A DNA stretch of 64,000 bases from Minisyncoccota bacterium (GCA_036405415.1 DASWXP010000002.1:272351-336350), one strand, 5' to 3'; positions 7,941 through 62,387 are shown, counted from the first letter of the stretch. Notes: generated by a model from the sequence alone, not told the origin. Made by a program: numbers and translations.

Positions 7941-10091
7941 ATGGACGACAAATTCCTTAAGCCCTACGACCCTCTGGAGACCGAGCCCCGGATATACCAG
8001 GAATGGGAGGAGAGCGGGTACTTCAACCCTGACCGGATGATCGCGGACGGCCTGACCGACAAGGATGCCGAGGCGTTCAGCATCATCCTGCCGCCCCCGA
8101 ACGTCACAGGACGCCTTCATATGGGTCACGCGCTCATGCTTGCGGTTGAGGACGTGTTCGTCCGGGCAAAGCGCATGCAGGGATACCGGACGCTCTGGAT
8201 CCCCGGCACGGACCATGCGGCAATCGCTACGCAGTCCGTGGTTGAGAAAGAAGTGTCGAAGAAGGAAGGCAAGAGCCGCTACGACCTCGGACGCGAGGAG
8301 CTGCTTCGTCGCATCGAGACGTTCGCGAGCGAGAGCCATGACACGATCGTAGGACAGGTGAAGACGATGGGGGCGTCCCTCGACTGGTCGCGCGAAGCCT
8401 TCACGCTTGATGAGACCCGCACCCGCGCCGTGCGCGAGGTATTCAAGCGCATGTACGACGCAGGGCTCATCTATCGCGGCAACCGCATCGTGAACTGGGA
8501 CCCGAAGGGACAGACCACGATCTCTGACGATGAGATTGTGCACGAGGAACGTACCGCAACTCTCTACACGTTCAAGTATGCGAAGGACTTCCCGATTGCC
8601 ATCTCCACCACGCGTCCTGAGACCAAGGTGGGAGACGCCGCGGTCGCAGTGCATCCGGACGACGCGCGCTATAAGGAGTACGTAGGCAAGGAATTCTCCT
8701 TCACCTTCTGCGACGTACCGGTAACGGTACGCGTGGTTGCTGATGCGGAAGTGGATCCTGCGTTCGGTACCGGCGCGCTCGGCGTGACGCCTGCGCATAG
8801 CCAGATCGACTGGGAGATCGCGGATCGCCATGACCTCCCGCGCCCGCAGGTCATCAACGAGTATGCGAAGATGACGGTCGAAGGCCGCCTCTCGGGCAAG
8901 AAGACCGCGGAAGCGCGCGAGATGGTGGTCGCGTGGCTTCGCGAGGAAGGCCTTCTCGAGAAGGAGGAGCAGGTCGCGCAGAACATCTCCACCGCAGAGC
9001 GCACGGGCGGCATCATCGAGCCCTTGCCGAAGCTCCAGTGGTTCATCGACGTGAATAAGGAGATTCCCGGCCGCGGCAAGTCCCTCAAGCAGCTCATGCT
9101 CGAGCCGGTGCGCGACGGACGTATCACGATAGTCCCGGAGCATTTCGATAAGACGTACTTCCACTGGATCGAGAATCTGCGCGACTGGTGCATAAGCCGC
9201 CAGATCTGGTACGGGCACCGCATTCCGGTGTGGTACCAGGGCGAGGAGATGGTCGTTGGCGAAGCGCCCGAAGGAGATGGCTGGACCCAGGACGAGGACA
9301 CGCTCGATACCTGGTTCTCCTCGGGGCTCTGGACCTTCTCCACGCTCGGCTGGCCGGAACAGACCGAAGACCTCAAGACCTATCATCCGACGGCGATCCT
9401 CGAGACCGGATACGACATCCTCTTCTTCTGGGTGGCGCGCATGATCCTCATGACGGGCTTCGCGCTCGACGAAGTGCCGTTTAGGACCATCTACCTGCAC
9501 GGTCTCGTGCGCGACGCGCAGGGACGCAAGATGTCGAAGTCGCTCGGCAACAACATGGATCCGCTCGATATCGCGAGCAGGTTTGGCGCGGACGCAGCGC
9601 GCATGGCGCTCATCGTCGGCAACACGCCTGGAACCGATACGCGCATCAGCGAGGACAAGATCAAGGGCTATAAGAACTTCGCAAACAAGCTCTGGAACAT
9701 CACGCGCTACGTTCTTACGGAGACCGAAGGCGTAGATGAGAACGCGGCGCTCACCGAGCCTGATGCCGCAATTCGCGCGGAACTCGATGCGCTCATCGCG
9801 GACGCAACCAAGGATATCGACGAGTACCGCATCTACATGGCCGCGGACAAGCTCTACCATTACGCGTGGGATCGCCTCGCATCCGAACTCCTCGAAGAGT
9901 CAAAGACAATCTTCCAAAGCGAAGACGAGGCTGCAAAAGTTTCCCGAAAGGCACTTCTTATCTCGCTCTTGCGCGATGTGATTACCACGCTTCATCCGTT
10001 CATGCCATTCGTGACGGAAGAGATATGGAAGAGCATCCGTCCTGCCGACGGACTCCTCATGACGGCAAAGTGGCCGGGAAAGACAGTGTAG
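7941..10091 (+). CDS. valS: Valine--tRNA ligase
   Basis: Class I aaRS HIGH (PPPNVTGRLHMGHA) and KMSKS motifs, with ValRS-specific editing and anticodon-binding regions. The real ATG is at 7941, downstream of TGCTATATT. Confidence 0.9.
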   Translation: MDDKFLKPYDPLETEPRIYQEWEESGYFNPDRMIADGLTDKDAEAFSIILPPPNVTGRLHMGHALMLAVEDVFVRAKRMQGYRTLWIPGTDHAAIATQSVVEKEVSKKEGKSRYDLGREELLRRIETFASESHDTIVGQVKTMGASLDWSREAFTLDETRTRAVREVFKRMYDAGLIYRGNRIVNWDPKGQTTISDDEIVHEERTATLYTFKYAKDFPIAISTTRPETKVGDAAVAVHPDDARYKEYVGKEFSFTFCDVPVTVRVVADAEVDPAFGTGALGVTPAHSQIDWEIADRHDLPRPQVINEYAKMTVEGRLSGKKTAEAREMVVAWLREEGLLEKEEQVAQNISTAERTGGIIEPLPKLQWFIDVNKEIPGRGKSLKQLMLEPVRDGRITIVPEHFDKTYFHWIENLRDWCISRQIWYGHRIPVWYQGEEMVVGEAPEGDGWTQDEDTLDTWFSSGLWTFSTLGWPEQTEDLKTYHPTAILETGYDILFFWVARMILMTGFALDEVPFRTIYLHGLVRDAQGRKMSKSLGNNMDPLDIASRFGADAARMALIVGNTPGTDTRISEDKIKGYKNFANKLWNITRYVLTETEGVDENAALTEPDAAIRAELDALIADATKDIDEYRIYMAADKLYHYAWDRLASELLEESKTIFQSEDEAAKVSRKALLISLLRDVITTLHPFMPFVTEEIWKSIRPADGLLMTAKWPGKTV

Positions 10092-11356: not shown

Positions 11357-12430
11357 TTAATGGGTCTCCTCGTGGAGCGCTGGGTGCGCGTATGAGCGGA
11401 TCGCCGTGAACCTAACTTGCCCTATCACCTGCCCGTTCTCCGTCTCTACCCGCACGCGCCATTCGCCAGGAACCACGCTGCTCACCTCTGAGTATCCGCG
11501 ATATCCGTCCGTCCGTCCGCCTGCTATCGGGAACGCGATCCTGCTCTGTGTCACCCACTCGCGGCTGGTCTCGTCATAGCGTTGCCAGCGATGCACAACG
11601 GTTGCGCCGAAACGTATCGGCGCCTGCACCGCGCTGAACGCGTAGAGCGGACTCCCTGCAGCTACCTGGATGGTATCCGGACGCGGATCCCACCATTCCC
11701 TGCCTTCCTCTGCCATGACTACGTACCGGTCTCCTTCGCGCACGAGGCTATGGAAGACGCCGCTGTCCTTGAGCGCAAGCGGGATAGGCGGCACGAGCCC
11801 CGTGAAGTACGCGCCTATGACGAGCGCGACGATGGCAAGACAGGAGGCGATGATAGGCGCGAGCGTGCGTCCGAGCTTTGCTACCCTCCCCAAAAGCATG
11901 AGGTATATGCCAAATATTGCGAGCGCACATGCCGTGCTTGCGAGGAATACCCAGGGACCGAGGGTACGCAGGAAGAGCGGGATCGCGAATATCGCATACG
12001 CGTACGCGGCGAAGAAGAGGAGTACCGCGATGAAGGCGATGCGGTCCTTGTACTTCCTGAACCACTCGTTGCCTATGAACACGAGGAGGAATAGGAGCAG
12101 GAACGGCCAGCTCGCCTCGAGCGCCGCGCTCTTCGTGTAGAAGATAAGGAACCAGGAAAGCAGGTTGCCGATGAGGTACTGCGCGACAAGCGGCAGGATG
12201 ACCGCGATGGAACGCTTGCGTACGGACGGCTCCGACCGCCAGCCGGAGAGCGCATGCGTAAGGAATACCGCAAGCGCTGCAAGCGCAAGGTAGGTACCTG
12301 AGGCTGCAAGCACGAACGACACGTCGAGCAGCACGAGCGCGATGACGTCGGTTATGAATCCAAACAGGAAAACGAACGCGCCGAGGTGCCGTTCGTTTCT
12401 CTGTGCCCAGGCAAGTACCCTGCGGATCAT
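11357..12430 (-). CDS. Hypothetical polytopic membrane protein with C-terminal soluble domain
   Basis: 357 aa with about 8 TM segments followed by a roughly 130 aa hydrophilic tail. No family recognised. Confidence 0.55.
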   Translation of the reverse strand: MIRRVLAWAQRNERHLGAFVFLFGFITDVIALVLLDVSFVLAASGTYLALAALAVFLTHALSGWRSEPSVRKRSIAVILPLVAQYLIGNLLSWFLIFYTKSAALEASWPFLLLFLLVFIGNEWFRKYKDRIAFIAVLLFFAAYAYAIFAIPLFLRTLGPWVFLASTACALAIFGIYLMLLGRVAKLGRTLAPIIASCLAIVALVIGAYFTGLVPPIPLALKDSGVFHSLVREGDRYVVMAEEGREWWDPRPDTIQVAAGSPLYAFSAVQAPIRFGATVVHRWQRYDETSREWVTQSRIAFPIAGGRTDGYRGYSEVSSVVPGEWRVRVETENGQVIGQVRFTAIRSYAHPALHEETH

Positions 12431-12460
12431 GCCTTAACTATACGCCATTGAGGGCGTTGC

Positions 12461-12985: not shown

Positions 12986-13624
12986 TTAGGCAGATAGTAC
13001 CCTTTTGGATGCTTCTTTTCCAATCAGCTGGATTGCACTTTGGATTACTAATCTCTCACGGATACCGGACCGAACACGAATCCTGCACATACCATACTGA
13101 AGCTTTCCTTTCTTTTTCCCTTTAATTATTTCAACTCTATTAATCCTGCTAGCTGGGACATTAAGGGTGCGCGACCAGAATTGGCACGCATGTGGTTCCG
13201 AGATATCTGCATGTAGACGCAGTGACAACGAGATTCTTTCTCGAGGGATTCCCATGTCATCTAGACAGCCCAAGAATGCCACCAGCAGGTTCGGATCAGA
13301 GTTAATTACAGAGAAATCCTTCTTAGTACCTTCGCCCCAATAGAGACCAATTAGCAGGAAGAGAGTGTCACGTGTATTAATCTCGCCGATGAGACCTTTT
13401 GCCCTTTCTAGCGAGTTCTCTCTTAATCCCAAAGCGCGCTCTTTTCCGCCGCCTTGCTTCTCCCGCAGTAACCTCCGCGCTTCCTGGGAAATCGGAACAT
13501 GCTTCACGTAGCGTTGTATGGTGGTCTTTGCCATTCCTGTCTCTCGAGAGATTTCAGGAATACTCATGCCTTGGAGCCTGCGCGCAACTATCATCAGTCT
13601 CGCCTCCTCAGACATCCTTTTCAT
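12986..13624 (-). CDS. Low-GC HTH-domain protein with degenerate LAGLIDADG-like motifs (possible freestanding homing endonuclease or mobile gene)
   Basis: About 47% GC against about 62% background. N-terminal HTH (ARRLQGMSIPEISRETGMAKTTIQRYV), then LIGLYWGEGTK and FLGCLDDMG motifs. The stop codon abuts the 5' end of tRNA-Arg. Confidence 0.5.
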   Translation of the reverse strand: MKRMSEEARLMIVARRLQGMSIPEISRETGMAKTTIQRYVKHVPISQEARRLLREKQGGGKERALGLRENSLERAKGLIGEINTRDTLFLLIGLYWGEGTKKDFSVINSDPNLLVAFLGCLDDMGIPRERISLSLRLHADISEPHACQFWSRTLNVPASRINRVEIIKGKKKGKLQYGMCRIRVRSGIRERLVIQSAIQLIGKEASKRVLSA

Positions 13625-20884: not shown

Positions 20885-21343
20885 TTAAAGTTTCGGAAGC
20901 GGCACGCGTGTTCCCACGTCCCATCCCTGCCTACGCATCTCGCCTGCTCTCGTCTCAAGCACGAGACGCACCGGACGCGGCGGATAGAACACCGCAGGGA
21001 ACGTGTCCGGAGAGACGTTCTCGTCGATTTTCAGAACCGTCCCGTCCTCGGAAAGCCATGCGATATCGATCGATACGCGCATGTCCTTCATCCAGAACCC
21101 GTACGAGCCTTGGGCAGGGAAGACGAAGAGGAGTCCGTAGTCTTCGGGCACATCCGTGCGTCCAGAGAGTCCTTGCACGCGTTCCGCGTCAGTGTCCGCG
21201 ATATCAAACACAAAGTCGCTCTTTGCGATCTCCGTATACGTACTAACCGTTTCCCTTTCAGAGTGCGGGATAAGGAAGTACCCCAGCGCGCCGATGACCG
21301 CGAGCGCGACGATGCTTGAGATGATCGCGGTCCTGATTTTCAT
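20885..21343 (-). CDS. DUF192 domain-containing protein
   Basis: 152 aa with a signal/TM anchor then a DUF192-like core (YGFWMKDMRVSIDIAWL). Confidence 0.65.
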   Translation of the reverse strand: MKIRTAIISSIVALAVIGALGYFLIPHSERETVSTYTEIAKSDFVFDIADTDAERVQGLSGRTDVPEDYGLLFVFPAQGSYGFWMKDMRVSIDIAWLSEDGTVLKIDENVSPDTFPAVFYPPRPVRLVLETRAGEMRRQGWDVGTRVPLPKL

Positions 21344-21346
21344 GAG

Positions 21347-21433
21347 CGGAGGCGGAGAGATTCGAACTCTCGAGAGCCTTTCGACCCTGCCACCTTTCCA
21401 AGATGGTGCACTAGACCGCTATGCGACGCCTCC
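21347..21433 (-). tRNA. tRNA-Ser (anticodon GGA), type II, no encoded CCA
   Basis: Manual cloverleaf: acceptor GGAGGCG/CGCCTCC, anticodon stem CCATC/GGTGG, loop TTGGAAA, long variable arm, T-arm GAGAGTTCGAATCTCTC. Confidence 0.8.
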
Positions 21434-21461
21434 GTGCGTGGCTGTTATACCACGAATCAAT

Positions 21462-22361
21462 CTATTTCGCTCCCTGACCGAGAAGCGCCGCGACGCGTGC
21501 CTCAACCGGCGGATGTGTCGCGAAGATGCGATTCATGAACTTTCCTGCCTGCGCACCGAACGGGTTCCCGATGAACAGGTGTGCAGTAGCGTGGTTCGCG
21601 CGGCGCATCGGGCGGCCGTCCTTGGCGATCTTCTGGAGCGCAGACGCGAGACCCTCAGGATAGCGCGTAAGCAGCGCGCCTGAAGAGTCCGCAAGAAATT
21701 CCCTCCTGCGTGAGATCGCGAGCTGGATGAGCTGGGCTGCGATAGGCGCAAGCACGATCGCAACCACCGCGAGGATCGCGAGTATGGCGCCTGCCTTGCT
21801 GTCATTATCGCGAGAGCCGCCGCCAAAGAGCGACATGCGCAGGAAGATATCCGCGACGATCGCCACGAACCCTGCGAGCACGACCGCTACCGTCATGACG
21901 AGCATGTCCTTGTTGCGGATATGAGAGAGCTCGTGCGCAATCACGCCCTCGAGCTCGGTGCGATTGAGGATCTGTAGGAGTCCGGTAGTAGCCGCGACCA
22001 CCGCATGCTTCTCATCGCGTCCGGTAGCGAAGGCGTTCGGCGCCGGGTCCTCGATTACGTAGAGCTTCGGCATCGGCATACCCGCCGTTATAGAGAGGTT
22101 CTCCGTGACGGTATAGAGGTCGAAGAACTCCTCGCGCGATGCAGGACGCGCGCCGTTCATCGTGAGCGCGATCTTGTCGGAGAACCAGTAGCTCCCCACG
22201 TTCATGAGTACCGAGAAGATGACCGCGCCCCAGAGAATGGCAGGGGAACCGTAGTACCAGGAGATGGCCCAGCCTATTGCGGTGACCACCAGGAAGAACC
22301 CGGCCATGAGGACCCAGGTCTTCATCACGTTCTTCGAGCGCTCCTGATAGAGGTTAGCCAT
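21462..22361 (-). CDS. htpX: Zinc metalloprotease HtpX (M48 family)
   Basis: HELSH zinc motif, N-terminal TM pairs and C-terminal IFATHPP. SD AAGGAAA upstream. Confidence 0.85.
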   Translation of the reverse strand: MANLYQERSKNVMKTWVLMAGFFLVVTAIGWAISWYYGSPAILWGAVIFSVLMNVGSYWFSDKIALTMNGARPASREEFFDLYTVTENLSITAGMPMPKLYVIEDPAPNAFATGRDEKHAVVAATTGLLQILNRTELEGVIAHELSHIRNKDMLVMTVAVVLAGFVAIVADIFLRMSLFGGGSRDNDSKAGAILAILAVVAIVLAPIAAQLIQLAISRRREFLADSSGALLTRYPEGLASALQKIAKDGRPMRRANHATAHLFIGNPFGAQAGKFMNRIFATHPPVEARVAALLGQGAK

Positions 22362-22968: not shown

Positions 22969-23280
22969 ATATAGATATTGTAGGATTTCTGCGCATCCGC
23001 GCAAGGAAGGGAATTCATATCCCCTTCATTGCCGACGGGGCGTTCCGGAGGTATGGTCGAAGCAGAAACGGAGGATGCACACCATGAGCTTATCTGCATA
23101 CGAACTGGCCGCCCTGCTCGGCGCGGCTCTGCTCGTTCCCAAGGTCCGCGAGTTCTGTTCGGGCTTCTGTTCCGGCCTGTTCGGCTGGGATGGCTACGAC
23201 TCAAGCGAACGCTGACGGCCCGAAGCGAAAGCGAAAATGCCGCGGCTTCTCAGTCGCGGCATTTTTCATTTCAGAATTTC

Positions 23281-24924
<1,644 letters not shown>

Positions 24925-24943
24925 TTAGAGAGGGAAGTAAGAC

Positions 24944-25252
24944 TTAGGAAAGGATCGCGAGCACGTTGGACTCGGAGAGGATGTAGTACTCTTGTTCGTC
25001 GACTTTGACCTCGTCGTATCCGTACTTGGAGAAGAGGACAGTATCGCCAACTTTTACTGTCATAGGAATGAGGTCGCCGTCCTCGTAGCGTCCGCCACCA
25101 ACCGCGACCACGGTCCCCTTCGAGGGCGCATCTTGTTTCGCCGAGTCCGGGATGATGATGCCGGAAGAGGAGACCTCCTCCTTCGCTTCGGGCTTCACGA
25201 CCACACGGTCGTTGAGCGGCGTAATAGAAAGGCTGTTCTTTGGCGTAGCCAT
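24944..25252 (-). CDS. groS: Co-chaperonin GroES (10 kDa)
   Basis: 102 aa with the canonical LNDRVVVKP...GIIIPDSAKQ GroES sequence. Confidence 0.95.
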   Translation of the reverse strand: MATPKNSLSITPLNDRVVVKPEAKEEVSSSGIIIPDSAKQDAPSKGTVVAVGGGRYEDGDLIPMTVKVGDTVLFSKYGYDEVKVDEQEYYILSESNVLAILS

Positions 25253-25293
25253 AGGAAAATGATTCGCTTATGCGGTTACTAAGAATGGCCCGT

Positions 25294-25320
25294 TTCTAGG
25301 CACGATTCCCCTGCCTAGAA
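25294..25320. promoter_or_regulatory. Perfect 9-N9-9 inverted repeat TTCTAGGCA-N9-TGCCTAGAA in the groESL leader (CIRCE-like architecture, non-CIRCE sequence)
   Basis: Perfect palindrome arms with a 9 nt spacer, a few nt downstream of the predicted groES transcription start. Confidence 0.45.
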
Positions 25321-25329
25321 GTTATCCAC

Positions 25330-25358
25330 AGTATAGGAATGAGGGTTTAGAGCGTCAA
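25330..25358 (-). promoter_or_regulatory. groESL promoter, TTGACG-N17-TATACT (minus strand)
   Basis: -35 at 25353-25358 and -10 at 25330-25335 on the minus strand, upstream of the IR and groES. Confidence 0.5.
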
Positions 25359-25380
25359 ATCAATCTAAAACTCCCAGCTA

Positions 25381-25410
25381 TTGACAAATGTGCATTTATG
25401 TATGTATAGT
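25381..25410 (+). promoter_or_regulatory. Consensus sigma70 promoter TTGACA-N18-TATAGT, divergent from the groESL promoter
   Basis: Perfect -35 TTGACA with a near-consensus -10. An SD (AAGGAA) precedes the downstream ATG at 25452. Confidence 0.5.
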
Positions 25411-25451
25411 TATATGCAGAGTTAACCCCTGGCCCCGGAAAGGAACCAGCC

Positions 25452-25739
25452 ATGAACGTCGTAATCCCCTGCCTCGCCTACCTCCTGATCGCGCTCGCCA
25501 TGAGCTCGTATCTGGTGGTCAGGTTCATCCGCCTACCAGCTTCGGTCGATCGCGACGACGCGATGTCGACCTTCATCGGCTATGCGCTGACCGCGCTGGT
25601 CGGCCTGTTCCTGCTGTCGACCGCGCACTACCAGTTCGGCCTGGGCGGCCTGTGGGCCGGCGTCGGTGCGCTTGCCGCGCTGACCGCGCTCGTCGGCTGG
25701 TCGTTCCGTCAGGAGAAACGCTCCTTCCAGCTGGCCTGA
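25452..25739 (+). CDS. Islet gene 1: hypothetical small membrane protein (95 aa, 2-3 TM)
   Basis: CTG/GGC-rich codon usage unlike neighbouring genes (which prefer CTC). Hydrophobic translation with its own promoter, SD and terminator. Confidence 0.6.
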   Translation: MNVVIPCLAYLLIALAMSSYLVVRFIRLPASVDRDDAMSTFIGYALTALVGLFLLSTAHYQFGLGGLWAGVGALAALTALVGWSFRQEKRSFQLA

Positions 25740-25760
25740 GCGTGCCGTGCCGCTGATCAG

Positions 25761-25790
25761 GCCCCCGGGAAATCCGTCCCGGGGGCTTTT
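25761..25790. terminator. Hairpin GCCCCCGGGA-AATCCG-TCCCGGGGGC + TTTTGCATTCC
   Basis: 10 bp GC stem plus T-run. Near-identical to the hairpin at 27370. Confidence 0.6.
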
Positions 25791-25862
25791 GCATTCCCCA
25801 CTCCTTGACTTGATGAAATTTATACGTGCTACCATTTCCTCATACAACTTACTGAAGCATTC

Positions 25863-26567
25863 ATGAAAGAAGGAAGTCCATTTACAGTGGTAAGCGAACC
25901 AAAGCGTTTTTCACCCGAGGATATGGTTGCGGCAGGAGAAGCTTTTGCTACTAACCCAGTTCAGTCAGAATCAGAGCCTGCCGAGATGTTTGATAGAAGC
26001 GGCATGGCCACACTTGGCGAAAAACTTGCTTCAGAGACTGCGGAATCAGTTTCAGCGGCAAACGAAGCTACCGTAGTACAGCTTAGCGAGGTCAGAGAGC
26101 GACTACGAGGACATGTCGAAACAGCGGTGGAAACGGCACCTTCCGCTCCCGAGACTTATGCAGAATCACCGGAAGCCACTCCAGAACAGATAGATACGTT
26201 CCTCCGTAAGGCATATGGCAGTGATGGATACAAAAACCATTCAGGCATCTACAGTGACAGCACGCCTGCAGAAAAGTTCGCGCACGTGATGCAGTCTCGC
26301 GAAAGCCTAGCAAGCTCAAGCAGGAAATCGACATCATGGTTCGCAGGTATTCTGAGCTCGGGAGCTGGCTTGGGTGCCGTAGCGGCTTTGGGTCTCACCG
26401 CGATTCCCGCTGCAGTTGCTGCGCCACTGCTTGCTGGACCTGCAATCGGCTATGGAGCTTACAGACTCTTGAAGTGGAACTTTAATCGGCAGCAGCGCAA
26501 ATTTGCTCGAGAAGCAGAGGAGCTCGGAATCACGACTGCAACCACTCAAACACGACTCGCTGCGTAG
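25863..26567 (+). CDS. Islet gene 2: hypothetical protein (234 aa), acidic disordered N-region plus C-terminal TM hairpin
   Basis: About 50% GC against 62% background and no SD. C-terminal WFAGILSSGAGLGAVAALGLTAIPAAVAAPLLAGPAIGYGAY is hydrophobic. Confidence 0.5.
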   Translation: MKEGSPFTVVSEPKRFSPEDMVAAGEAFATNPVQSESEPAEMFDRSGMATLGEKLASETAESVSAANEATVVQLSEVRERLRGHVETAVETAPSAPETYAESPEATPEQIDTFLRKAYGSDGYKNHSGIYSDSTPAEKFAHVMQSRESLASSSRKSTSWFAGILSSGAGLGAVAALGLTAIPAAVAAPLLAGPAIGYGAYRLLKWNFNRQQRKFAREAEELGITTATTQTRLAA

Positions 26568-26591
26568 CAGAATCACTACTTTCTCATTTTT

Positions 26592-26619
26592 AAAACTCCG
26601 GTTTGATTCCGGAGTTTTT
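26592..26619. terminator. Hairpin AAAACTCCGG-TTTGATT-CCGGAGTTTT
   Basis: Perfect stem with a T-run, directly after islet gene 2. Confidence 0.55.
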
Positions 26620-26630
26620 GCTATCATAAT

Positions 26631-26659
26631 TTGACACATATATTAGGATTATGTTATAT
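26631..26659 (+). promoter_or_regulatory. Consensus sigma70 promoter TTGACA-N17-TTATAT
   Basis: Perfect -35 with 17 nt spacing to an AT-rich -10. An SD (AGGAG) sits 7-8 nt before the ATG at 26721. Confidence 0.45.
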
Positions 26660-26720
26660 TAATTTCCAGAGCACCTTGATAGTTGCTTTGTTTCAGCCCC
26701 GAATCTCGCAGGAGTCCCCA

Positions 26721-27356
26721 ATGCTCGACTACGCTTTTCCGCTCGGCATCATGGCCACAGCGGCCATCGTCACCCTGGCGTTCTGGCTGCAGCGGAGCGC
26801 CTTTTTCCGCTTCAATCACGAGCGCCGGAAGGATGACCCCAAGGTCAATACGCACGAGCCGAGCTGGGATTCCTTCAAAAGCTTCGTGCAATTCGCCATG
26901 ATCGCCATGCTCGGCGCCTTCCTGGGCTCCGGCGAACCGATCGTTCTCGACTATCTGCAGCGGGAGCCATTCCTGCGCACGGCCGCCGTCAGCATCATCG
27001 TCCTCTGGTACGGGTGCTATGCGCTCGTGCTGTCGGCAAGGAGCCTGATTTCGGCGTTCCACCTCTTGATCCACTTCTACAACGTGGAAGCGAAAAGCTC
27101 TGAAAGTCTCCAACAAGAGCATCAGCGCTTCCGCGATCAAGCCGATGCCGCCGCCTTGCAACGAGCCAACGAGGCCGCAGCCTCCGCTCGCGCCGAAGCC
27201 GCGGCGCTACGCGCTGAGCTCGAGGCCGAGCGGGCAGGTCGTTCGGCGGAGTCCACTCCGACCGTGGGAGACGCTCCGCCGGTCGAGCAGCCCGCCCCGG
27301 AGGCATCGGCCGATGCCGGGGTCGTCCGAATCGACAACCGTCGCCAGGCTGGCTGA
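26721..27356 (+). CDS. Islet gene 3: hypothetical membrane protein (211 aa), 3-4 TM plus Ala-rich coiled-coil tail
   Basis: N-terminal TM segments and C-terminal AAALQRANEAAASARAEAAALRAELEAERAG. The ORF-track N-extension is spurious; the ATG at 26721 follows the SD. Confidence 0.6.
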   Translation: MLDYAFPLGIMATAAIVTLAFWLQRSAFFRFNHERRKDDPKVNTHEPSWDSFKSFVQFAMIAMLGAFLGSGEPIVLDYLQREPFLRTAAVSIIVLWYGCYALVLSARSLISAFHLLIHFYNVEAKSSESLQQEHQRFRDQADAAALQRANEAAASARAEAAALRAELEAERAGRSAESTPTVGDAPPVEQPAPEASADAGVVRIDNRRQAG

Positions 27357-27369
27357 ACGAAGGCAACCA

Positions 27370-27397
27370 CCCCCGGGACTCGTGTCCCGGGGGTTTT
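27370..27397. terminator. Hairpin CCCCCGGGA-CTCGTG-TCCCGGGGG + TTTTGCATTTCC
   Basis: Same CCCCCGGGA family as 25761, with the same TTTTGCATT trailer. Confidence 0.6.
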
Positions 27398-27435
27398 GCA
27401 TTTCCTCCCCTATTTTGGTATAGTCCGCCTCACAG

Positions 27436-27666
27436 ATGGAGACTCTCTCGGCAGCATTGCCCTACATTCAGATAGCACTCTCCCTTCTTCTTATCGCGGG
27501 GATCGTCCTTCAGAACCGAGGGGCGTCCTTGGGTGGAGCCTTCGGAGGCGACAACTTCGCGTCTACCTTCTACAAGCGCCGCGGCGCTGAGAAGTTCCTG
27601 TTCAACGCGACCATCGTCATCGCTATCCTCTTCGTAGCCGCTGCGGTCGCAGGCCTCTTCTACTAG
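27436..27666 (+). CDS. secG: Preprotein translocase subunit SecG
   Basis: 76 aa with two TM segments and the SecG motif LLQNRGASLGGAFGG. The ATG lies 11 nt after TGGTATAGT. Confidence 0.75.
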   Translation: METLSAALPYIQIALSLLLIAGIVLQNRGASLGGAFGGDNFASTFYKRRGAEKFLFNATIVIAILFVAAAVAGLFY

Positions 27667-27703
27667 CCTGCTCCGGGGCGCCATCTGTGCCCTAATTCCG
27701 CCT

Positions 27704-29401
27704 ATGCGGCCCTCCCCTTTTTACGTACCTGAAAGCAGTGACTCGCCTCTCATAAAGGCGCAGCGCTTCCTTCGTTCCCTCTCGCCAGGAGACCGCGCGA
27801 TCGCCGCAGTGCTCGGGCTCTTGCTCGTTACGTCTCTCTTTTCAGGTCTCGTAGCGCTCATCCGCGCGTACCAGGTGACGGTACCCGCGTATGGCGGAAG
27901 TCTTACGGAAGGCGTGATCGGGTCACCTCGTTTCATCAATCCCCTGCTCGCGCTTTCTGACGCGGACCGCGACCTCACGTCCTTGGTCTATGCGGGGCTC
28001 ATGGGCGTGGACGGAGACGGGAACATGGTGCCCGTGCTTGCGGAGCGCTATCTCGTGTCTGAGGACGGGACCGAATACACGTTCCTCCTCCGGGAGAATG
28101 CGAAGTTCTCGGACGGCTCTCCGGTAACAGCTGAGGACGTGGTGTTCACGGTAGAACGCGCTCAGGATCCGGCGCTCCGCTCACCGGAGCTCGCGAACTG
28201 GGCGAACATTCGGGCTGAAGCGGTAGACGCGCGCACCGTGCGCTTCACGCTTCCCCAGCCGTACGCGCCGTTCCTTGCGGACACCACGCTCGGCATCCTT
28301 CCGGCGAAGCTCTGGAGGAACGTGCCCGTGGACGAGTTCTCGTTCTCGCCGCAGATGACGGAGCCGGTGGGAGCAGGGCCGTTCAAGGTGTCGCGCGTGA
28401 CGAAGGACAAGGCCGGGAAGATCACCTCGATGGAGCTTTCCGTGTTCAAGGCCTACGCGCCGGGACGCGCGCATCTCAACCGGATCACCATGAAGTTCTA
28501 TCAGGACCAGGAAGCGCTCAAGGACGCATACGACAGCCGGCAGATCGAGAGCGCGTACGGCATCCTCGCGAAGGACATGCTCCGCGCTCCGTACTCCCGC
28601 GTATTCGGCGCATTCTTCAACAGCGACGAGAACCCGGTGTTCGCGAAGCTCGAGGTGCGCAAGGCGCTCTCGTTTGCGGTTAGTCGCGCCCGCATCACGC
28701 AGGACCTTCTCGGAGGCAACGCGACGCCTTTGATGGGCCCGGTTCCTCCGGGAAGCGGCGTGACTCCTTTCCCTGTCCCTGAGGGCGATCCGGTTACGCT
28801 TGCGACCGAGGTCCTTACGGACGCCGGATGGGAGCGCGACGAGGAGACCGGACTCTGGGGAGACGGCGAGACGATCCTTTCATCGGTCACGCTCAAGACC
28901 GCGAACGTGCCCGAGCTCAAGGCGATCGCGCTTTCTATCGAAGCGGACTGGGAGGCGCTCGGCGTACCTACGGAAGTCGAGCTCTACGAGCCCGGAGACC
29001 TCGCGAGCTCCGTGATCCGCCCGCGCGCGTACGAAGCCTTGCTCTTCGGCATGGTTATCGGCCGCGATCGCGACCTCTACGCGTTCTGGGACTCGGGAGA
29101 GCGCTCCGATCCTGGCCTTAACATCGCCGCGTACGCGAACCGCGCCGTGGATCAGCTCCTTGAGAGCGCGCGTCAGGAGCTTGATCCTGAGATCGCGCGC
29201 AAGGATCTCGAGGAGCTCTCTACCCTGATCGCAGAAGACTACCCTGCTGCCTTTACGCACGCACCGGACTTCCTGTATGCTATCCCTAACAGCGTCCACG
29301 GCGTACGTCTCCCCCAGATAGCAGCACCGTCGGACCGATTCGCGACCGTCGCGCATTGGTACCGGAACACGGAGGAGGTGTGGCCCGTCTTCGCGAAGTA
29401 G
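27704..29401 (+). CDS. ABC transporter substrate-binding protein, family 5 (peptide/nickel type)
   Basis: 565 aa with an N-terminal signal/anchor and SBP_bac_5-like conservation (YTFLLRENAKFSDGSPVTAEDVVFT, ILPAKLW). Confidence 0.8.
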   Translation: MRPSPFYVPESSDSPLIKAQRFLRSLSPGDRAIAAVLGLLLVTSLFSGLVALIRAYQVTVPAYGGSLTEGVIGSPRFINPLLALSDADRDLTSLVYAGLMGVDGDGNMVPVLAERYLVSEDGTEYTFLLRENAKFSDGSPVTAEDVVFTVERAQDPALRSPELANWANIRAEAVDARTVRFTLPQPYAPFLADTTLGILPAKLWRNVPVDEFSFSPQMTEPVGAGPFKVSRVTKDKAGKITSMELSVFKAYAPGRAHLNRITMKFYQDQEALKDAYDSRQIESAYGILAKDMLRAPYSRVFGAFFNSDENPVFAKLEVRKALSFAVSRARITQDLLGGNATPLMGPVPPGSGVTPFPVPEGDPVTLATEVLTDAGWERDEETGLWGDGETILSSVTLKTANVPELKAIALSIEADWEALGVPTEVELYEPGDLASSVIRPRAYEALLFGMVIGRDRDLYAFWDSGERSDPGLNIAAYANRAVDQLLESARQELDPEIARKDLEELSTLIAEDYPAAFTHAPDFLYAIPNSVHGVRLPQIAAPSDRFATVAHWYRNTEEVWPVFAK

Positions 29402-29502
29402 TGTGAACAGTCGATAGCCTAGAGGCCCATATCGGCATACAGGCTGCCTACTGCGCATACGTGCGCTTCATTGAAAAAACTATCAGATAACAATCATTCA
29501 TT

Positions 29503-31419
29503 ATGTCAGCAGCACCCGCGCCGGCTCCGGCGCCAAGCTCCCGCCCGAAGCCAGATGCTCGTCCGACGCGTCCTGAGGGCGCACCATCGCGCCCGCGCGG
29601 CACCCGCTCTCGCGGCACCCGCGGCGGACAGGGTCGTGCTCGTGGCGGTCGCGCATCGCGCGATATCCGCCGCACGCTTGGACGCCCCGGCGCAAACGAA
29701 GCGCCGCGCGAGAAGAAGCAGGCGGAATACCTTCCGCAGGCGCCAGGAAAGGACACGGTACGCATCGTGCCCCTCGGAGGCGTCGAGGAGGTGGGACGCA
29801 ACATGTTCACCGTCGAGACCAACGGCGATATCTTCGTATTCGACGTGGGCTTCCAGTTCGTGTCCGAGGACACGCAGCCGGGCGTCGACTACGTACTTCC
29901 GAACACTAAGTACCTTGAGGTGAACAAGGACCGCATCCGCGGCGTATTCATCACCCACGGCCACCTCGACCACATCGGCGGCATCCCGTTCCTTATGGAG
30001 CGCATGGGCAACCCGACCATCTACACCCGAACCCTTTCGGCGACAATGATCAAGAAGCGTCAGGAGGAATATCCGGACCAGGCTCCCCTTAACATCGTCG
30101 AGGTGGAGGCAGGCCAGCAGATGACCATCGGTTCTACCAAGGTCCGCTTCTTCCAGGTGACGCACTCGATCCCTGACTCCATGGGTATCGCGGTCGAGAC
30201 TCCGTACGGAGACGTCGTCGCTACCGGAGACCTCAAGCTCGATCACGACAATGGCATCCCGACCGATCGCGAGATCAAGGTCTGGGGCGAGCTCGGAAGC
30301 CGCAAGAACCTCTTCTTCATCGCCGACTCCACCAACGCGGAGCGTGACGGCTTCTCGGTCCCTGAGAAGAAAGTGCACGAGACTCTCGAGGAGATCGTGC
30401 GCACCGTGAAGGGCCGCCTTATCATCGGTACCTTCGCGTCTCAGTTCGAGCGCATGGTCCGCATCATCGAGATCTGCGAATCGCTCGGCAAGAAGGTCAT
30501 CACCGAAGGACGCTCCATCAAGACGAACCTCGAGATCGCCCAGAAGACGGGGCTTCTCAAGGTCAAGAAGGAGACGATCATCTCTTCCCAGGAGATCGGC
30601 GACTATCCTCCGGACAAGGTGGTTATCCTGTCGACCGGCGCGCAGGGCGAGGAGTTCGCCGCACTCATGCGCATCGCGACCAAGCAGCACAAGTCGATCA
30701 CGCTCACCCCGCGCGATACCGTGGTCCTCTCGTCCTCGGTCATTCCGGGCAACGAGATCTCAGTGCAGCGACTCAAGGACTGCCTCTACCGCAACGGCGT
30801 GACGCTCATCCATTACAAGTCGTCCGACGTGCACTCGACCGGCCACGGAAACACGGGCGAGCTCGTATGGATGAACAAGCAGGTCAACGCGAAGTACTTC
30901 ATGCCGGCCTACGGCTACTACTCCATGACCTACTCGCACGCGAAGGCGGTCGAGCAAGCTGGCAGGCCCCGTGAATCCATCGTCGTGGCGGATAACGGTA
31001 CCGTCATCGATATCGGTCCAGACGAGAAGCTCAACGTGCATAAGCAGAAGGTGCCGTCTTCCCCGCTCGTCGTGGACGGGTACTCGATCGGTGACTTCCA
31101 GGAGGTCGTGATGCGCGATCGCCAGATGCTCGCGAAGGACGGCATGTTCGTGATCATCGCGACCGTGAACCTCAAGACCGGAAAGCTCCGCAAGTCTCCG
31201 GACATCATCTCCCGCGGATTCGTATACCTGCGCGAGAATCAGGAGATGCTCAACCAGGCGCGCCTCCTCATCAAGAAGACCGTGGAAGACACCACGCAAG
31301 GCATGAACCCGGTCGATCTCGACGAGGTGAAGAACGCGCTTTCAGACACCATGGCCGGCTTCCTCTTCATGAGGACCAACAAGGCGCCGATGGTGATCCC
31401 AGTCCTCATCGGGGTGTAA
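29503..31419 (+). CDS. rnj: Ribonuclease J (metallo-beta-lactamase/beta-CASP RNase) with Arg/Gly-rich N-terminal extension
   Basis: HGHLDHIGG zinc motif, beta-CASP and C-terminal domains. The first roughly 90 aa are P/A/R/G-rich (RGTRSRGTRGGQGRARGGRASRD). Confidence 0.85.
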   Translation: MSAAPAPAPAPSSRPKPDARPTRPEGAPSRPRGTRSRGTRGGQGRARGGRASRDIRRTLGRPGANEAPREKKQAEYLPQAPGKDTVRIVPLGGVEEVGRNMFTVETNGDIFVFDVGFQFVSEDTQPGVDYVLPNTKYLEVNKDRIRGVFITHGHLDHIGGIPFLMERMGNPTIYTRTLSATMIKKRQEEYPDQAPLNIVEVEAGQQMTIGSTKVRFFQVTHSIPDSMGIAVETPYGDVVATGDLKLDHDNGIPTDREIKVWGELGSRKNLFFIADSTNAERDGFSVPEKKVHETLEEIVRTVKGRLIIGTFASQFERMVRIIEICESLGKKVITEGRSIKTNLEIAQKTGLLKVKKETIISSQEIGDYPPDKVVILSTGAQGEEFAALMRIATKQHKSITLTPRDTVVLSSSVIPGNEISVQRLKDCLYRNGVTLIHYKSSDVHSTGHGNTGELVWMNKQVNAKYFMPAYGYYSMTYSHAKAVEQAGRPRESIVVADNGTVIDIGPDEKLNVHKQKVPSSPLVVDGYSIGDFQEVVMRDRQMLAKDGMFVIIATVNLKTGKLRKSPDIISRGFVYLRENQEMLNQARLLIKKTVEDTTQGMNPVDLDEVKNALSDTMAGFLFMRTNKAPMVIPVLIGV

Positions 31420-33675: not shown

Positions 33676-33960
33676 ATGTAGGAAGTATAGCAAAACCCCC
33701 TCCAGGCCGGAGCCAGGAGGGGGAGGTCGTAGTTCCATGGGAACGAAGCGACGGGTGGTTTAGCTAGGGATCAGAGCAACTAAAGAGGGTGCCCCCTCAA
33801 ACCGTAGGGTACAGCCTGTGAGGCCTTCACCACATGGCGTTGGTTGTTTTGTGCAGCTTAGGCGCGGACGCCTTCACATGCTCCCTTCTCGAGAAACCAA
33901 GCTACGCCCGCACGGAACCAGGACCAGCAGCACTTTACTAGTTTCAGAAAGGTACGTCAA

Positions 33961-34632
33961 TTACTTCGCCTTCGGCCACCTCCCTGCCGCAGGAGGCCAG
34001 AGCTTCGTGAGCGGATGGTCCTCGCAGGGATGCGGGAGCGCTGGGCACACGTACCGGCCGTAGAGCACCAGGCCGTTGTTCACGTACTTCCAGTCCTTCT
34101 TCGGGATAAGCGCTTCCAGGTCCTTTGATATCTTCGTGAGCTCGGTCCGGTCTGTAAGGTCGAACTTGAGCGCGAACCGGCGTACGTGCGTATCCGTGGG
34201 GATTCCCTCCCATACGTCATGAAGCTCTCCTAATATCACGTGGGCAGTCTTATATGCGATTCCCGGAAGCGTCACGAGCTCAGCCTCGGTCTTCGGTATC
34301 CTTCCCTTGAATTGGTCCCGGACTATCTTCGCTGTCGCGAGGATGTGCCGCGCCTTGTTCTGATAGAACGTAATCGAGGATATCTGCTTCGTGAAGGTCG
34401 CAAGGTCCGCGTCCGCGAAATCATTCACGCTCTTGTACTGCTTGAAGAGGCTCTCCGTTACCAGGTTCACGCGCTTGTCGGTAGACTGCGCTGACAGCAT
34501 CACGGCCGTAACGAGCTGGAACGGGGTCTTGTAGCTGAGTTCCGTCTCAGGAACCGGATAGGTCTTCTTGAGATATGAAAGTATCTTCTTGGCGCGTGCC
34601 GTGCGCTCTTCGCGGATTGAGGCCTTAGGCAT
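33961..34632 (-). CDS. nth: Endonuclease III (Nth) family glycosylase/lyase with degenerate Fe-S motif
   Basis: HhH-GPD core (LPGIAYKTAHVIL, catalytic region), but the C-terminal cluster region keeps only C-X6-C. Confidence 0.75.
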   Translation of the reverse strand: MPKASIREERTARAKKILSYLKKTYPVPETELSYKTPFQLVTAVMLSAQSTDKRVNLVTESLFKQYKSVNDFADADLATFTKQISSITFYQNKARHILATAKIVRDQFKGRIPKTEAELVTLPGIAYKTAHVILGELHDVWEGIPTDTHVRRFALKFDLTDRTELTKISKDLEALIPKKDWKYVNNGLVLYGRYVCPALPHPCEDHPLTKLWPPAAGRWPKAK

Positions 34633-40149: not shown

Positions 40150-40180
40150 AAAACCCCGGGACAGGCTGTCCCGGGGTTTT
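40150..40180. terminator. Hairpin AAAACCCCGGGACAGG-CTGTCCCGGGGTTTT
   Basis: CCCGGG-family hairpin terminating the helicase gene. The TGGTATACT box of the dsbA-like gene abuts it. Confidence 0.55.
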
Positions 40181-44913: not shown

Positions 44914-45507
44914 ATGTCAGAGGAATATGCCTATAAGGGCGATCCTCTGGGATCGCCAAAAAGATACTGCCGTGTTTGTGGAAAGACTCTTTCTGCATAC
45001 AACAGGAACAAGCAATGCTTTCATCATGCCGTCGACGAGACGGTTCGTCAGGAGCGGAAAATCACAACATCAGTAGCTATCCTTCCGGTTGTGCGCACTG
45101 CCGTTCGTTCAGGGCCGCCGAAGGTGAAACGTATCGTTCCAAAACCTGCAGTTCAGCAGGCGGCGCGACAAACGGCAGTGACGAGCGCGAGTGCACTTGA
45201 GCTTCCGAAGCGGAGATTCCCGTCTCAGAAAGCGATCGCCAGCGTTGTGTGTACCTGGTTTGGCGTTGAATTCGAAGATGTGGTTCGCGAGGATAAGCAC
45301 GCACGAATCTCGCACATACGAAACATCCTCATGTATCTCCTGTATAAGGACTCAGCGGGTTCGTATCAATCTGTCGTGGAATTCCTGAATCGGAAAAACC
45401 ACACAACCGCAGTAGCTGCGGTTAAAAAGATCGAGACCCTGTGTTCTTATGACAGACGGCTCCGCTGCGAACTGTGGCTTATGCGGAGGAAATACAGAAT
45501 CAAATAG
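44914..45507 (+). CDS. Standalone DnaA domain-IV (Bac_DnaA_C) HTH protein with N-terminal zinc ribbon
   Basis: C-terminus (ARISHIRNILMYLLYKD...SYQSVVEFLNRKNHTTAVAAVKKIE) matches the DnaA DNA-binding domain. N-terminal CRVCGK...CFHH. About 50% GC, with an SD AAGGAG. Confidence 0.65.
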   Translation: MSEEYAYKGDPLGSPKRYCRVCGKTLSAYNRNKQCFHHAVDETVRQERKITTSVAILPVVRTAVRSGPPKVKRIVPKPAVQQAARQTAVTSASALELPKRRFPSQKAIASVVCTWFGVEFEDVVREDKHARISHIRNILMYLLYKDSAGSYQSVVEFLNRKNHTTAVAAVKKIETLCSYDRRLRCELWLMRRKYRIK

Positions 45508-61676: not shown

Positions 61677-62387
61677 TCAGCGCATGGGCACCTCGATGAG
61701 GATTACCGAAGCAGAATCTGTTGCAGAAAGAGTTATCGACTCAAACTCTGATACCCCTAGGCCGTCTCGTGCGCCAAATTCTATATCTCCGACCGTGACG
61801 CTTCCCCCAACCACAAACACATAAACCCCGTGCTCTTCGGTGCGCAGAGCATATGACAAAGGATGCGCGGCATCGATTCTTGCATAAGAGATATAGGCAT
61901 CTTGCTGAATGGGCAGCGAACCCTCGCGCCCTCCCTCGCTCGCTAAAAGCGCTATGCCCGGAGCCTGCTCTCCAAGATTAAATGCCTTCTGCGCGTAGTT
62001 GGGTTCGCTGTTGGGCTTATTGGTCTCTATCCATATCTGAAACAGCGTCAGCGGTTCTTCCTCTGACTTATTCTCTTCTGCGTGTGTCACTCCCGTCCCC
62101 GCAGACATAACCTGTACGTCGCCTGCCGGAACGTCAAAAGAATTTCCGAGGCTATCGGTATGCGTAACCGTTCCGCCCGTTACGATGGTAATGATCTCCA
62201 TGTCCCTATGGGAATGCGCACCGAATCCCGTTGAGGGCGCGATCTGGTCGTCGTTCAATACGCGCAGCTTGCCGAAGCCCATCCGGGTTGGATCGTACCA
62301 GTTCGCAAAGCTGAAGCTATACCTAGTTGATAGCCATCCGTAGTCTCCCCCGCCTCGTGTGGTTGATCGATGTAGTAGCGTTTTCAT
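61677..62387 (-). CDS. Pirin family protein (bicupin)
   Basis: HSHRDMEIITIV metal-binding motif and bicupin length (236 aa). Confidence 0.85.
   Translation of the reverse strand: MKTLLHRSTTRGGGDYGWLSTRYSFSFANWYDPTRMGFGKLRVLNDDQIAPSTGFGAHSHRDMEIITIVTGGTVTHTDSLGNSFDVPAGDVQVMSAGTGVTHAEENKSEEEPLTLFQIWIETNKPNSEPNYAQKAFNLGEQAPGIALLASEGGREGSLPIQQDAYISYARIDAAHPLSYALRTEEHGVYVFVVGGSVTVGDIEFGARDGLGVSEFESITLSATDSASVILIEVPMR

Follow-up and report, generated by a model that had tools for sequence, protein, structure and literature searches.

What is carried between groES and secG in the chromosome of an uncultured Candidatus Paceibacterota bacterium (Paceibacteria, candidate phyla radiation (CPR); GC content ~60%), and how is this material kept, lost, and exchanged? 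The 64,000-nucleotide (nt) stretch that we analyzed (GCA_036405415.1, DASWXP010000002.1:272351-336350, from a 622-kb contig), referred to here as the window, has three plus-strand open reading frames (ORFs) in the gap between these two genes, g1, g2 (VGE53_01825 in the database), and g3 (VGE53_01830), encoding proteins of 95, 234, and 211 residues (aa). The original prediction, made from the sequence of the window alone, described them as a mosaic of three unrelated membrane-protein cassettes, each with its own promoter and terminator. We now think it probable that the gap is a fixed slot, a miniature flexible islet of the replacement or additive kind whose contents are exchanged by homologous recombination. 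The left boundary of the slot is the groES promoter and the right boundary a GC-rich terminator hairpin joined to the secG promoter, and in this species group the slot holds one autonomous cassette, which consists of a near-consensus sigma70 promoter, a ~60-nt leader with a Shine-Dalgarno (SD) sequence, a coding sequence (CDS) for a small membrane protein, and an intrinsic terminator. The window is a composite, in which the g1 cassette with a type A terminator and a stub of the secG promoter is followed by g2 and then by the g3 cassette with a type B terminator (Table 1).

The slot becomes apparent when the same junction is compared across relatives. Seven related genomes in GTDB were found via the adjacent SBP gene (60–77% identity), and a metagenome scan with SecG brought the total to 35 junctions (loci with L numbers) in which both groES and secG are present. 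The order HtpX-LemA-GroEL-GroES // SecG-SBP-RNase J is kept in all seven related genomes, groES, secG, and SBP are likewise found in every metagenome locus that extends far enough, and flanking synteny is kept at every one of the 35 junctions. Between these flanks the gap ranges from 50 to 2838 bp: it measures 50–250 bp and contains just the two promoters at 21 junctions, 300–700 bp at 11, and more than 800 bp at three. Fourteen of the 35 gaps are occupied, mostly by unrelated ORFans, among them small proteins with one to three transmembrane (TM) helices (L008, L024, L034, and L045) and an 880-aa secreted protein with PG-binding and Ig/PKD domains (L033), so that the proposal of an insertion hotspot or small accessory module is borne out. 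None of the 35 junction loci encodes g1, g2, or g3 by tblastn (E ≤ 0.1), and in the closest genomes all three are absent in the form that they take in the window. No orthologous junction was found that carries the same three genes with host-like codons, nor does any of the proteins match a housekeeping family.

That g3 belongs to the slot is seen from its homologues. A phmmer search with g3 against 1.84e9 representatives gave two homologues only, P0004 (209 aa, 35% identity, E 1.9e-22) and P0005 (179 aa, 34% identity, E 2.7e-4); in a MAFFT alignment of the three proteins the identities to g3 are 34 and 28%, respectively. Both are encoded exactly between groES and secG, P0004 as the sole gap gene in L061 and P0005 as the sole gap gene in L062–L067. 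The GroEL, SecG, SBP, and RNase J proteins of L062 are 98.7, 98.7, 97, and 98.4% identical to those of the window, with DNA that is ~90% identical over 20 kb, and the N-terminus of GroES in L061 is 100% identical. Contigs that encode an identical SecG provide three more 3′ ends of the P0004 type (L068, L070, and L071) and one type A terminator (L069). When L061 is compared with g3, the promoter, the 5′ untranslated region (UTR), and the first ~25 codons are 75% identical (blastn, 171 nt) and the last codons and the terminator are 94–96% identical, and the CDS between them does not align. We take g3, on the evidence of these homologues, to be a resident slot gene of the species group of the window and not a foreign gene. 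The claim that the three cassettes are unrelated is not supported: g3 is resident in the slot, and g1 shares with it the layout of the cassette promoter and has the terminator of the L062 type. Four haplotypes can be distinguished between flanking proteins that are 97–100% identical, namely g1-g2-g3, P0004 alone, P0005 alone, and g1 alone, the last of which is a reconstruction (see below).

An AlphaFold2 (AF2) model of g3 (pLDDT 73) has helices at residues 5–38, 49–68, and 73–81 and a very long helix at 83–177, followed by a disordered tail, and its helices agree with the TM helices predicted from hydropathy. By the positive-inside rule the protein is predicted to be N-out/C-in with the long helix and the tail in the cytoplasm, and it probably oligomerizes via the long helix. 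The GC content by codon position is coding-like (0.67/0.48/0.78; GC1>GC2<<GC3), and an ORF of this length was matched in 75 of 2000 shuffles. Divergence within the g3 family is high, with dN of 0.63–0.86, dS of 0.9–1.4, and omega ~0.65 (Biopython alignment), as compared with dN of 0.004–0.03 and dS of 0.05–0.62 in the flanking genes (0.05 in secG and 0.29–0.62 in the other six), such that dN in the g3 family exceeds dS in its neighbors. This divergence could reflect any one of three causes: diversifying selection, the import of old alleles, or very weak constraint.

The g1 gene is another cassette of the groES-secG slot. Its promoter has the −35 element, spacing, and −10 element of those of g3, P0004, and P0005, together with CAGAG at the expected start of the transcript, and AAGGA lies 7 nt ahead of its ATG. 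The g1 cassette (~25309–25787) is 99% identical in L077 (SRR30787002), the groEL of which is 85–92% identical to that of the window (85–97% for groEL and groES taken together), and the g1 CDS of the two differs by one substitution (N2Y) in 288 nt. The L077 contig ends inside the hairpin of the type A terminator (hairpin A), and the first sequence in L069, another contig of that sample, is hairpin A, which is followed by the secG promoter and secG. A g1-only haplotype is inferred because these two contigs overlap at hairpin A (27 nt, exact), and very probably exists. To judge from these short-read contigs, one of which is possibly chimeric, the g1 cassette would have moved recently between lineages that are ~10% apart. 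The g1 protein is predicted to be N-out/C-in by the positive-inside rule and ends in the tail RQEKRSFQLA. Its GC content by codon position is coding-like in the same manner as that of g3 (0.64/0.46/0.88). The case for g1 as a coding gene rests on GC3 periodicity, TM pattern, and expression signals, because the length of the ORF by itself is not significant, being matched in 673 of 2000 shuffles. A 21-nt direct repeat (95% identical) within g1, at 25584–25604 and 25677–25697, encodes ALTALVGL in TM2 and ALTALVGW in TM3 and suggests an internal duplication. That g1 may be a diverged paralogue of the g3 family is suggested by cassette architecture, hhalign and BLASTP being negative.

In contrast to g1 and g3, g2 is compositionally foreign. 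It is the only real compositional alien of the three genes, with a codon adaptation index (CAI) of 0.37 against 0.64 ± 0.09 in the host and a flat GC content by codon position (0.60/0.54/0.43). The mosaic composition described in the original prediction is confirmed in that codon use is atypical and g1 and g3 are rich in CTG, and has to be narrowed in that g2 alone is foreign in composition. The g2 protein has an acidic helical N-terminal region of ~155 aa, a Gly/Ala-rich TM hairpin, and a basic tail; hydropathy gives it one or two TM helices (three each for g1 and g3), the acidic domain is predicted from the positive-inside rule to be cytoplasmic, and the AF2 model is all-helical and unreliable (pLDDT 50). 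An ORF of 234 codons was reached in none of 2000 shuffles, which makes g2 the sole length-significant ORF of the three. Neither an SD sequence nor a consensus promoter was found in the g2 region. The claim that each gene has its own promoter holds for two of the three, because g2 has at best a weak extended −10 element, TGCTACCAT; similarly, the SD sequences ascribed to each gene are seen in g1 (AAGGA) and g3 (AGGAG) and not in g2.

The expression signals of the slot stand out from those of the genome. The g1 and g3 promoters are the only two sites in 64 kb that match the sigma70 consensus at 11 of 12 positions, and three of the four sites in the window with at least 10 of 12 are in the groES-secG gap, the third being the groES promoter (10/12). 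Most host genes have no SD sequence and many look leaderless, in line with the remark in the original prediction that such signals are rare elsewhere in the window. In several host genes, secG included, an extended −10 element (TGnTATAnT) lies only 5–12 nt ahead of the ATG (for example at 27416–27438 (secG), 12430–12445 (minus-strand gene 11357–12430), and 1420–1440), so that this genome seems as a rule to initiate without a leader or with a very short one. The leader of secG is itself very short, because its ATG is 11 nt past the −10 element. The slot cassettes are the exception, with leaders of ~60 nt plus AGGAG or AAGGA. Folding energies of the 5′UTRs were no better than those of shuffles, which gives no indication of a thermometer or a structure that sequesters the SD sequence.

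Codon usage also separates the slot from its surroundings. Host genes have a GC3 of 0.75 ± 0.08 and prefer CTC for Leu (62%, with CTG at 11%) and GCG for Ala (53%, with GCC at 17%). In g1, 65% of Leu codons are CTG as compared with 11% in the host (p 2e-7), and in g3 (GC3 0.78) CTG accounts for 37% of Leu codons and GCC for 55% of Ala codons, as compared with 17% in the host (p 1e-7). The same CTG/GCC bias is present in P0004, P0005, and the non-homologous slot ORF of L008, and thus in all slot occupants that were checked (g1, g3, L061 332–961, L062 10001–10540, and L008 9294–9650). It could be due to a lack of codon selection in fast-evolving genes or to a shared external gene pool. We rejected the codon usage of membrane proteins as its cause, because the polytopic membrane proteins of the host (7–13 TM helices) use the host codons CTC and GCG.

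These properties bear on the main rival to an exchanged islet, namely that the gap is a permissive junk or nursery site between two insulated promoters, which tolerates young, weakly constrained, or neutral ORFs, possibly arising de novo or decaying, as neutral passengers. An omega of ~0.65–0.8 in the g3 family, which is seen also within the P0004 type, agrees with such a site, as do the ORFan status of g1, g2, and g3 among 5.8e9 proteins, the absence of the host CTC/GCG preference (as expected without codon selection), the flat GC pattern of g2 and its lack of an SD sequence or a clear promoter, and the 21 of 35 relatives without any gene in the gap. What such a site does not lead one to expect is that g3, P0004, and P0005 keep their length, their 3-TM architecture, the long helix, and the invariant motifs G-x-G-x-P, Y-G-x-Y, and R-x-L, with no stops, that g1 and g3 have a strong frame-specific GC3, that their promoters are the two best sigma70 matches in the 64 kb, that the g1 CDS has changed so little between lineages ~10% apart, or that the g2 ORF has a length not reached in 2000 shuffles. 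We regard the neutral-passenger explanation as having a real but clearly minor chance of being correct, and continue with that of a slot with exchangeable cassettes.

Each of the three genes ends in a strong hairpin, as had been proposed, with folding energies of −30.6 (z −2.7), −18.4 (z −3.2), and −31.5 kcal/mol (z −3.7). The first and third share the stem CCCCCGGGA/TCCCGGGGG followed by TTTTGCATT, but the stem that had been described as near-identical is not confined to the islet. As CCCCGGGA(C)...(G)TCCCGGGG, it occurs with different loops at 1395–1417, 25763–25784, 27371–27392, and 40154–40176, that is, in four copies where 0.04 are expected. Because the copies at 1395 and 40154 lie at the ends of host genes, we consider the stem a generic host terminator rather than an islet-specific element. 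The hairpin at 1395 is fused directly to the extended −10 promoter (TTTGCTATACT) of the next gene, much as at secG, and the four copies may represent a terminator/promoter module used across the genome, or else a family of repeats. A site-specific cassette array of the integron type, in which the GC-rich hairpins are recombination sites, is suggested by the tandem self-contained units that each have a hairpin, and by the direct repeats of the same stem that bracket g2 and g3. It is largely refuted and retains hardly any credibility: the hairpins are perfect GC stems with T tracts that end host genes elsewhere, no integrase or recombinase is present in the syntenic 20 kb, g1 and g3 have promoters of their own, unlike integron cassettes, and no cassette is common to different loci or slots.

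For the fixed slot, the boundaries themselves are informative. Homology with relatives ends on the left at ~25358–25361; between the window and L062 the DNA homology stops at 25361 and resumes at 27370. At both slot edges the identity to L062 and L068 is 95–99%, as compared with a background of 87–91%; the secG gene is likewise 95–99% identical to relatives at the nucleotide level, with a pS of 0.05 against 0.24–0.42 in its neighbors. The tracts of high identity are 24829–25353, 27370–27700, and 29170–29540 (the last comprising the SBP end and the RNase J N-terminus), and as sequence patterns they look like recent recombination between lineages ~10% apart. The identity peaks at the edges and the low pS of secG fit frequent recombination in the flanks. 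The type A element matches, at 97% identity, the sequence immediately ahead of secG in L062 and L069, the type B terminator is near-identical in L061, L068, L070, and L071, and the two hairpins are the left and right direct-repeat copies that bracket g2 and g3. The pattern TTTTGCAT...TGCTATAAT...CACAGATGGAG of the secG promoter is kept throughout the related junctions, and a GC hairpin lies directly upstream of the secG −35 element in L008, L014, L015, and the window.

We propose a hypothetical mechanism in which cassettes are replaced or stacked by homologous recombination through these conserved boundary sequences. Relative to a haplotype like that of L061, positions 25359–26628 would be an insertion of the g1 promoter, g1, terminator A with the secG −35 stub, g2, and its terminator. 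Relative to the g1-only haplotype, ~1.57 kb containing g2 and the g3 cassette would have come to separate the −35 from the −10 element of the secG promoter. The inserted segment would be bracketed by ~38-nt direct repeats of the hairpin plus TTTTGCATT(T)CC, and the g2+g3 segment may have entered by a crossover in this ~38-nt terminator/−35 element, which would duplicate the element on both sides. A single crossover within the boundary element, of Campbell type or unequal, between two slot haplotypes would be sufficient to yield the structure of the window. Among the genes annotated with Pfam in the 20 kb of L062 that are syntenic with the window, none is an integrase, transposase, or phage gene.

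Table 1. Features of the groES-secG gap and its borders, with positions counted from the first nucleotide of the window
Feature	Position	Strand	Description
groES	24944-25252	-	Cpn10, E 3.5e-31; left neighbor of the gap
groES promoter	25330..25358	-	TTGACG-17-TATACT; conserved left slot boundary
g1 promoter	25381..25410	+	TTGACA-18-TATAGT; 11/12 consensus
g1 Shine-Dalgarno	25440..25445	+	AAGGAA
g1	25452-25739	+	95 aa; three predicted TM helices; GC3 0.88; CTG-rich Leu codons
Terminator type A	25761..25798	+	Loop AAATCCG; includes first ~13 nt of secG promoter (CTTTTGCATTCC)
g2	25863-26567	+	234-aa ORFan; GC3 0.43
g2 intrinsic terminator	26592..26619	+	AAAACTCCGG-N7-CCGGAGTTTTT
g3 promoter	26631..26660	+	TTGACA-18-TATATT; 11/12 consensus; TG-extended
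g3 Shine-Dalgarno	26710..26714	+	AGGAG; 6 nt ahead of ATG
g3	26721-27356	+	211 aa; 3 TM helices, long helix, disordered Pro/Ala/Glu tail
Terminator type B	27369..27394	+	Loop CTCGTG; near-identical in L061, L068, L070, and L071
secG promoter	27395..27424	+	TTTGCA-18-TATAGT; TG-extended; conserved across the clade
secG	27436-27666	+	SecG, E 5e-13; conserved right anchor of the slot

What the slot proteins do was approached by homology. Hydropathy together with four hidden Markov model (HMM) libraries confirms that the gap contains three TM-bearing ORFs, none of them recognizable: g1, g2, and g3 had no significant match in Pfam, NCBIfam, PHROGs, or PADLOC (best E 0.01–0.1), and P0004 and P0005 had none in Pfam or PHROGs, where weak hits were not common to the three members of the g3 family either. 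In a word-indexed search of the 5.8e9 proteins, g1, g2, and g3 matched only themselves (for g3, within a limit of 8000 candidates), and exact-sequence look-ups of all three returned only 100% identical contigs from one project (SRR11449177-88). The comparison of g1, g2, and the L008 slot ORF with the g3 family gave hhalign probabilities of 0.3–2.4% and no significant BLASTP match, and no paralogues of g1, g2, or g3 were found elsewhere in the window. A Foldseek search of the PDB with the g3 model gave no hit with E<3, a sequence-profile search of the PDB gave chance hits only, and an Rfam scan of 24900–27700 gave one sub-threshold chance hit.

One possible origin is a phage-derived module, that is, a prophage remnant with small membrane proteins that resemble holins or act in superinfection exclusion. 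In its size, three TM helices, and charged C-terminus the g1 protein is like a class I holin, PHROGs gives a weak holin match for g3 (E 0.1), neither the expression signals nor the codon usage look native to the host, and hypervariability is typical of genes in phage-host arms races. The PHROG hit is, however, not significant and is not shared by P0004 or P0005, no relatives of g2 or the g3 family were found in the viral genomes of IMG/VR (g1 was not scanned) nor of g2 among INPHARED phages and PLSDB plasmids, and the g3 family is known only from the chromosomal groES-secG slot. Moreover, no endolysin, integrase, or other phage gene is present within ~9–10 kb, nor any phage or lysin gene within ~10 kb in the Pfam annotation of the syntenic L062. 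We consider a phage origin improbable.

The small polytopic proteins could alternatively be strain-specific immunity factors of a polymorphic toxin/immunity or bacteriocin-immunity locus. The occurrence of strongly divergent alleles within conserved flanks does resemble what is seen at immunity and pherotype loci, and PADLOC has a weak hit of g1 to '2TM effector' that is not significant (E 0.061). In opposition to this, the slot contains no toxin or bacteriocin gene, transporter, or two-gene operon, terminators separate its genes, nothing in PADLOC or Pfam is significant, and the single-gene haplotypes (P0004, P0005, or g1 alone) have no partner gene, so that an immunity locus appears less probable still than a phage remnant. 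More generally, no lysis, toxin, or recombinase partner gene was found, and the holin-like, toxin/immunity, and stress-effector roles suggested in the original prediction have in their favor no HMM hit, no partner gene, and no viral or plasmid relative in the searches with g2 and the g3 family. Nor does anything connect the proteins with a known anti-phage defense system.

Within the fixed slot that we favor, the products are predicted to be inner-membrane proteins, most of the mass of g1, g2, and g3 being on the cytoplasmic side by the positive-inside rule. They appear to be dispensable, strain-specific accessory proteins, probably strongly expressed, under weak or diversifying selection, and not to have housekeeping, lysis, or toxin functions. 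The single role that we rate highest lies at the level of the envelope and would be strain-specific, for example in phage exclusion or host compatibility, a guess to which we give only a limited chance. We also put forward, as a speculation that is rather unlikely when all of its parts are taken jointly, that the slot is a dedicated, recombination-driven identity locus of episymbiotic CPR bacteria. Its single-gene cassettes may be portable owing to universal signals (a consensus sigma70 promoter plus SD sequence) in a genome that may otherwise initiate leaderless or from an extended −10 element. The membrane-anchored coiled-coil proteins may be hypervariable under diversifying or frequency-dependent selection and may set strain-specific phage exclusion or host-cell compatibility, and g2 could be newly captured or have arisen de novo at the slot.

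Several points weigh against the slot as we have described it. An identity of ~30% leaves the alignment of the g3 family uncertain, which inflates both dN and dS, and fast near-neutral drift (omega 0.6–0.8) could account for a large part of the differences between alleles, with no need for diversifying selection. The relatives that were compared are ~88–94% identical at the nucleotide level and hence are not the same strain. L077 is a short-read Logan contig that could be chimeric, and its join to L069 rests on a 27-nt overlap within a palindrome. Homology of g1 to the g3 family found no support (hhalign probability 2%; BLASTP not significant), and the resemblance of its promoter to those of the family is short. 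The functional role of the slot proteins, proposed from sequence features, is a guess. Finally, replacement islands usually encode exposed structures and show peaks of single-nucleotide polymorphisms (SNPs) at their borders (Lopez-Perez, Martin-Cuadrado, Rodriguez-Valera 2014, PMC4033161), unlike the slot, the proteins of which are predicted to be mostly cytoplasmic and the borders of which show identity peaks.

Other observations concern the gaps of relatives and the remainder of the window. A family of basic soluble proteins of 66–94 aa with the motif SW..V.RG...W(V/L)R(R/S)WEI ('WVRRWEI') and no Pfam match occupies the gap, in place of a membrane protein, in three of the closer relatives (L014 9454–9654, L015 5678–5914, and L016 1536–1820). 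The gaps of L012 and L013 contain a near-perfect inverted repeat of ~110 nt at 9540–9655 (GAGCAACTGGCGCGATTCTGGAG ... CTCCAGAATTGCGCCAGTTGCTC), possibly a structured RNA or a MITE-like element. In L010, whose gap measures 1190 bp, a T-arm-like string, GGCAGAGCAGGTATCGAACCCGCC, lies at 9585–9625 just upstream of secG and may be a tRNA remnant; ARAGORN calls no tRNA there. A tRNA as the integration site was rejected, no tRNA gene being present in or beside the slot in the window or its relatives. Upstream of groES (25298–25345), the string GTTATCCACAGTATAG is invariant across nine aligned close relatives; read on the groES strand, it includes the −10 element TATACT and TGTGGATAAC. Between the groES promoter and groES there is an inverted repeat, CTAGGCA-N9-TGCCTAG, and the element upstream of groES may be a heat-shock operator, with no match to the CIRCE consensus. 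The homology between the window and L062 has other short interruptions, at 21343–21474, 23060–23179, and 33677–33970, which are the tRNA-Ser/HtpX, LemA/GroEL, and PspC-side intergenic regions (L062 5154–5910, 7495–7715, and 16888–17502), and L062 carries extra ORFs of 96 and 148 aa at these breaks. These genomes may in general have small variable slots. Low GC3 (0.48–0.56, with 0.75 in the host) is also seen at 12986–13624 (−), 44914–45507 (+), 61677–62387 (−), and 62424–63266 (−), and these four genes are candidates for further acquired genes.

The essence of the locus is that alleles that are only 28–35% identical lie between flanking proteins that are 97–99% identical, and that at least one cassette, that of g1, appears to be common to lineages ~10% apart. 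CPR bacteria (Patescibacteria) have tiny genomes, and much of their strain-specific content consists of small membrane proteins of unknown function. The slot is a compact and precisely delimited example of the turnover of such genes. It provides a natural marker for strain tracking in metagenomes and a candidate neutral landing pad for genetics in CPR organisms, and g1, g3, P0004, and P0005 are a few proteins in which phage- or host-related phenotypes could be sought.

How does the slot compare with known systems? It is a small flexible genomic islet and no new type of molecular system, and it does not qualify as an integron, a holin cassette, or a toxin-antitoxin system. Like integron arrays it has small self-contained tandem units that each end in an inverted repeat, but it has no IntI integrase or attC-type imperfect site, and its hairpin is a generic host terminator. 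The g1 protein resembles class I holins and superinfection-exclusion proteins in being a fast-evolving ORFan of 95 aa with three TM helices and a short charged C-terminus, but the slot lacks the context of a lysis cassette, a significant PHROG match, and a viral relative of g2 or the g3 family. The pilA allele groups of Pseudomonas aeruginosa and the comQXP pherotypes of Bacillus are loci of allelic idiomorphs, and the slot shares with them highly divergent alleles between conserved flanks and haplotypes some of which have extra accessory genes; there is no relationship in sequence or function, and those loci have known functions and partner genes. The closest parallel in organization is with the flexible islands of aquatic prokaryotes, which are exchanged by homologous recombination between clonal frames (PMC4033161). 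Those islands are multi-gene clusters of tens of kb that encode exposed glycans and appendages and have SNP peaks at their borders, whereas the cassettes of the slot, in a CPR host, are single-gene units of 0.5–0.9 kb, each with its own promoter, SD sequence, and terminator, with a terminator/promoter element that doubles as the boundary, products predicted to face the cytoplasm, and borders of raised identity. What the slot has in common with them is a fixed position between core genes, content that is different or extremely divergent in relatives, and the absence of mobile-element genes; the near-identical g1 cassette in a diverged core, on a contig that may be chimeric, and putative recombination tracts at the borders may be further parallels.

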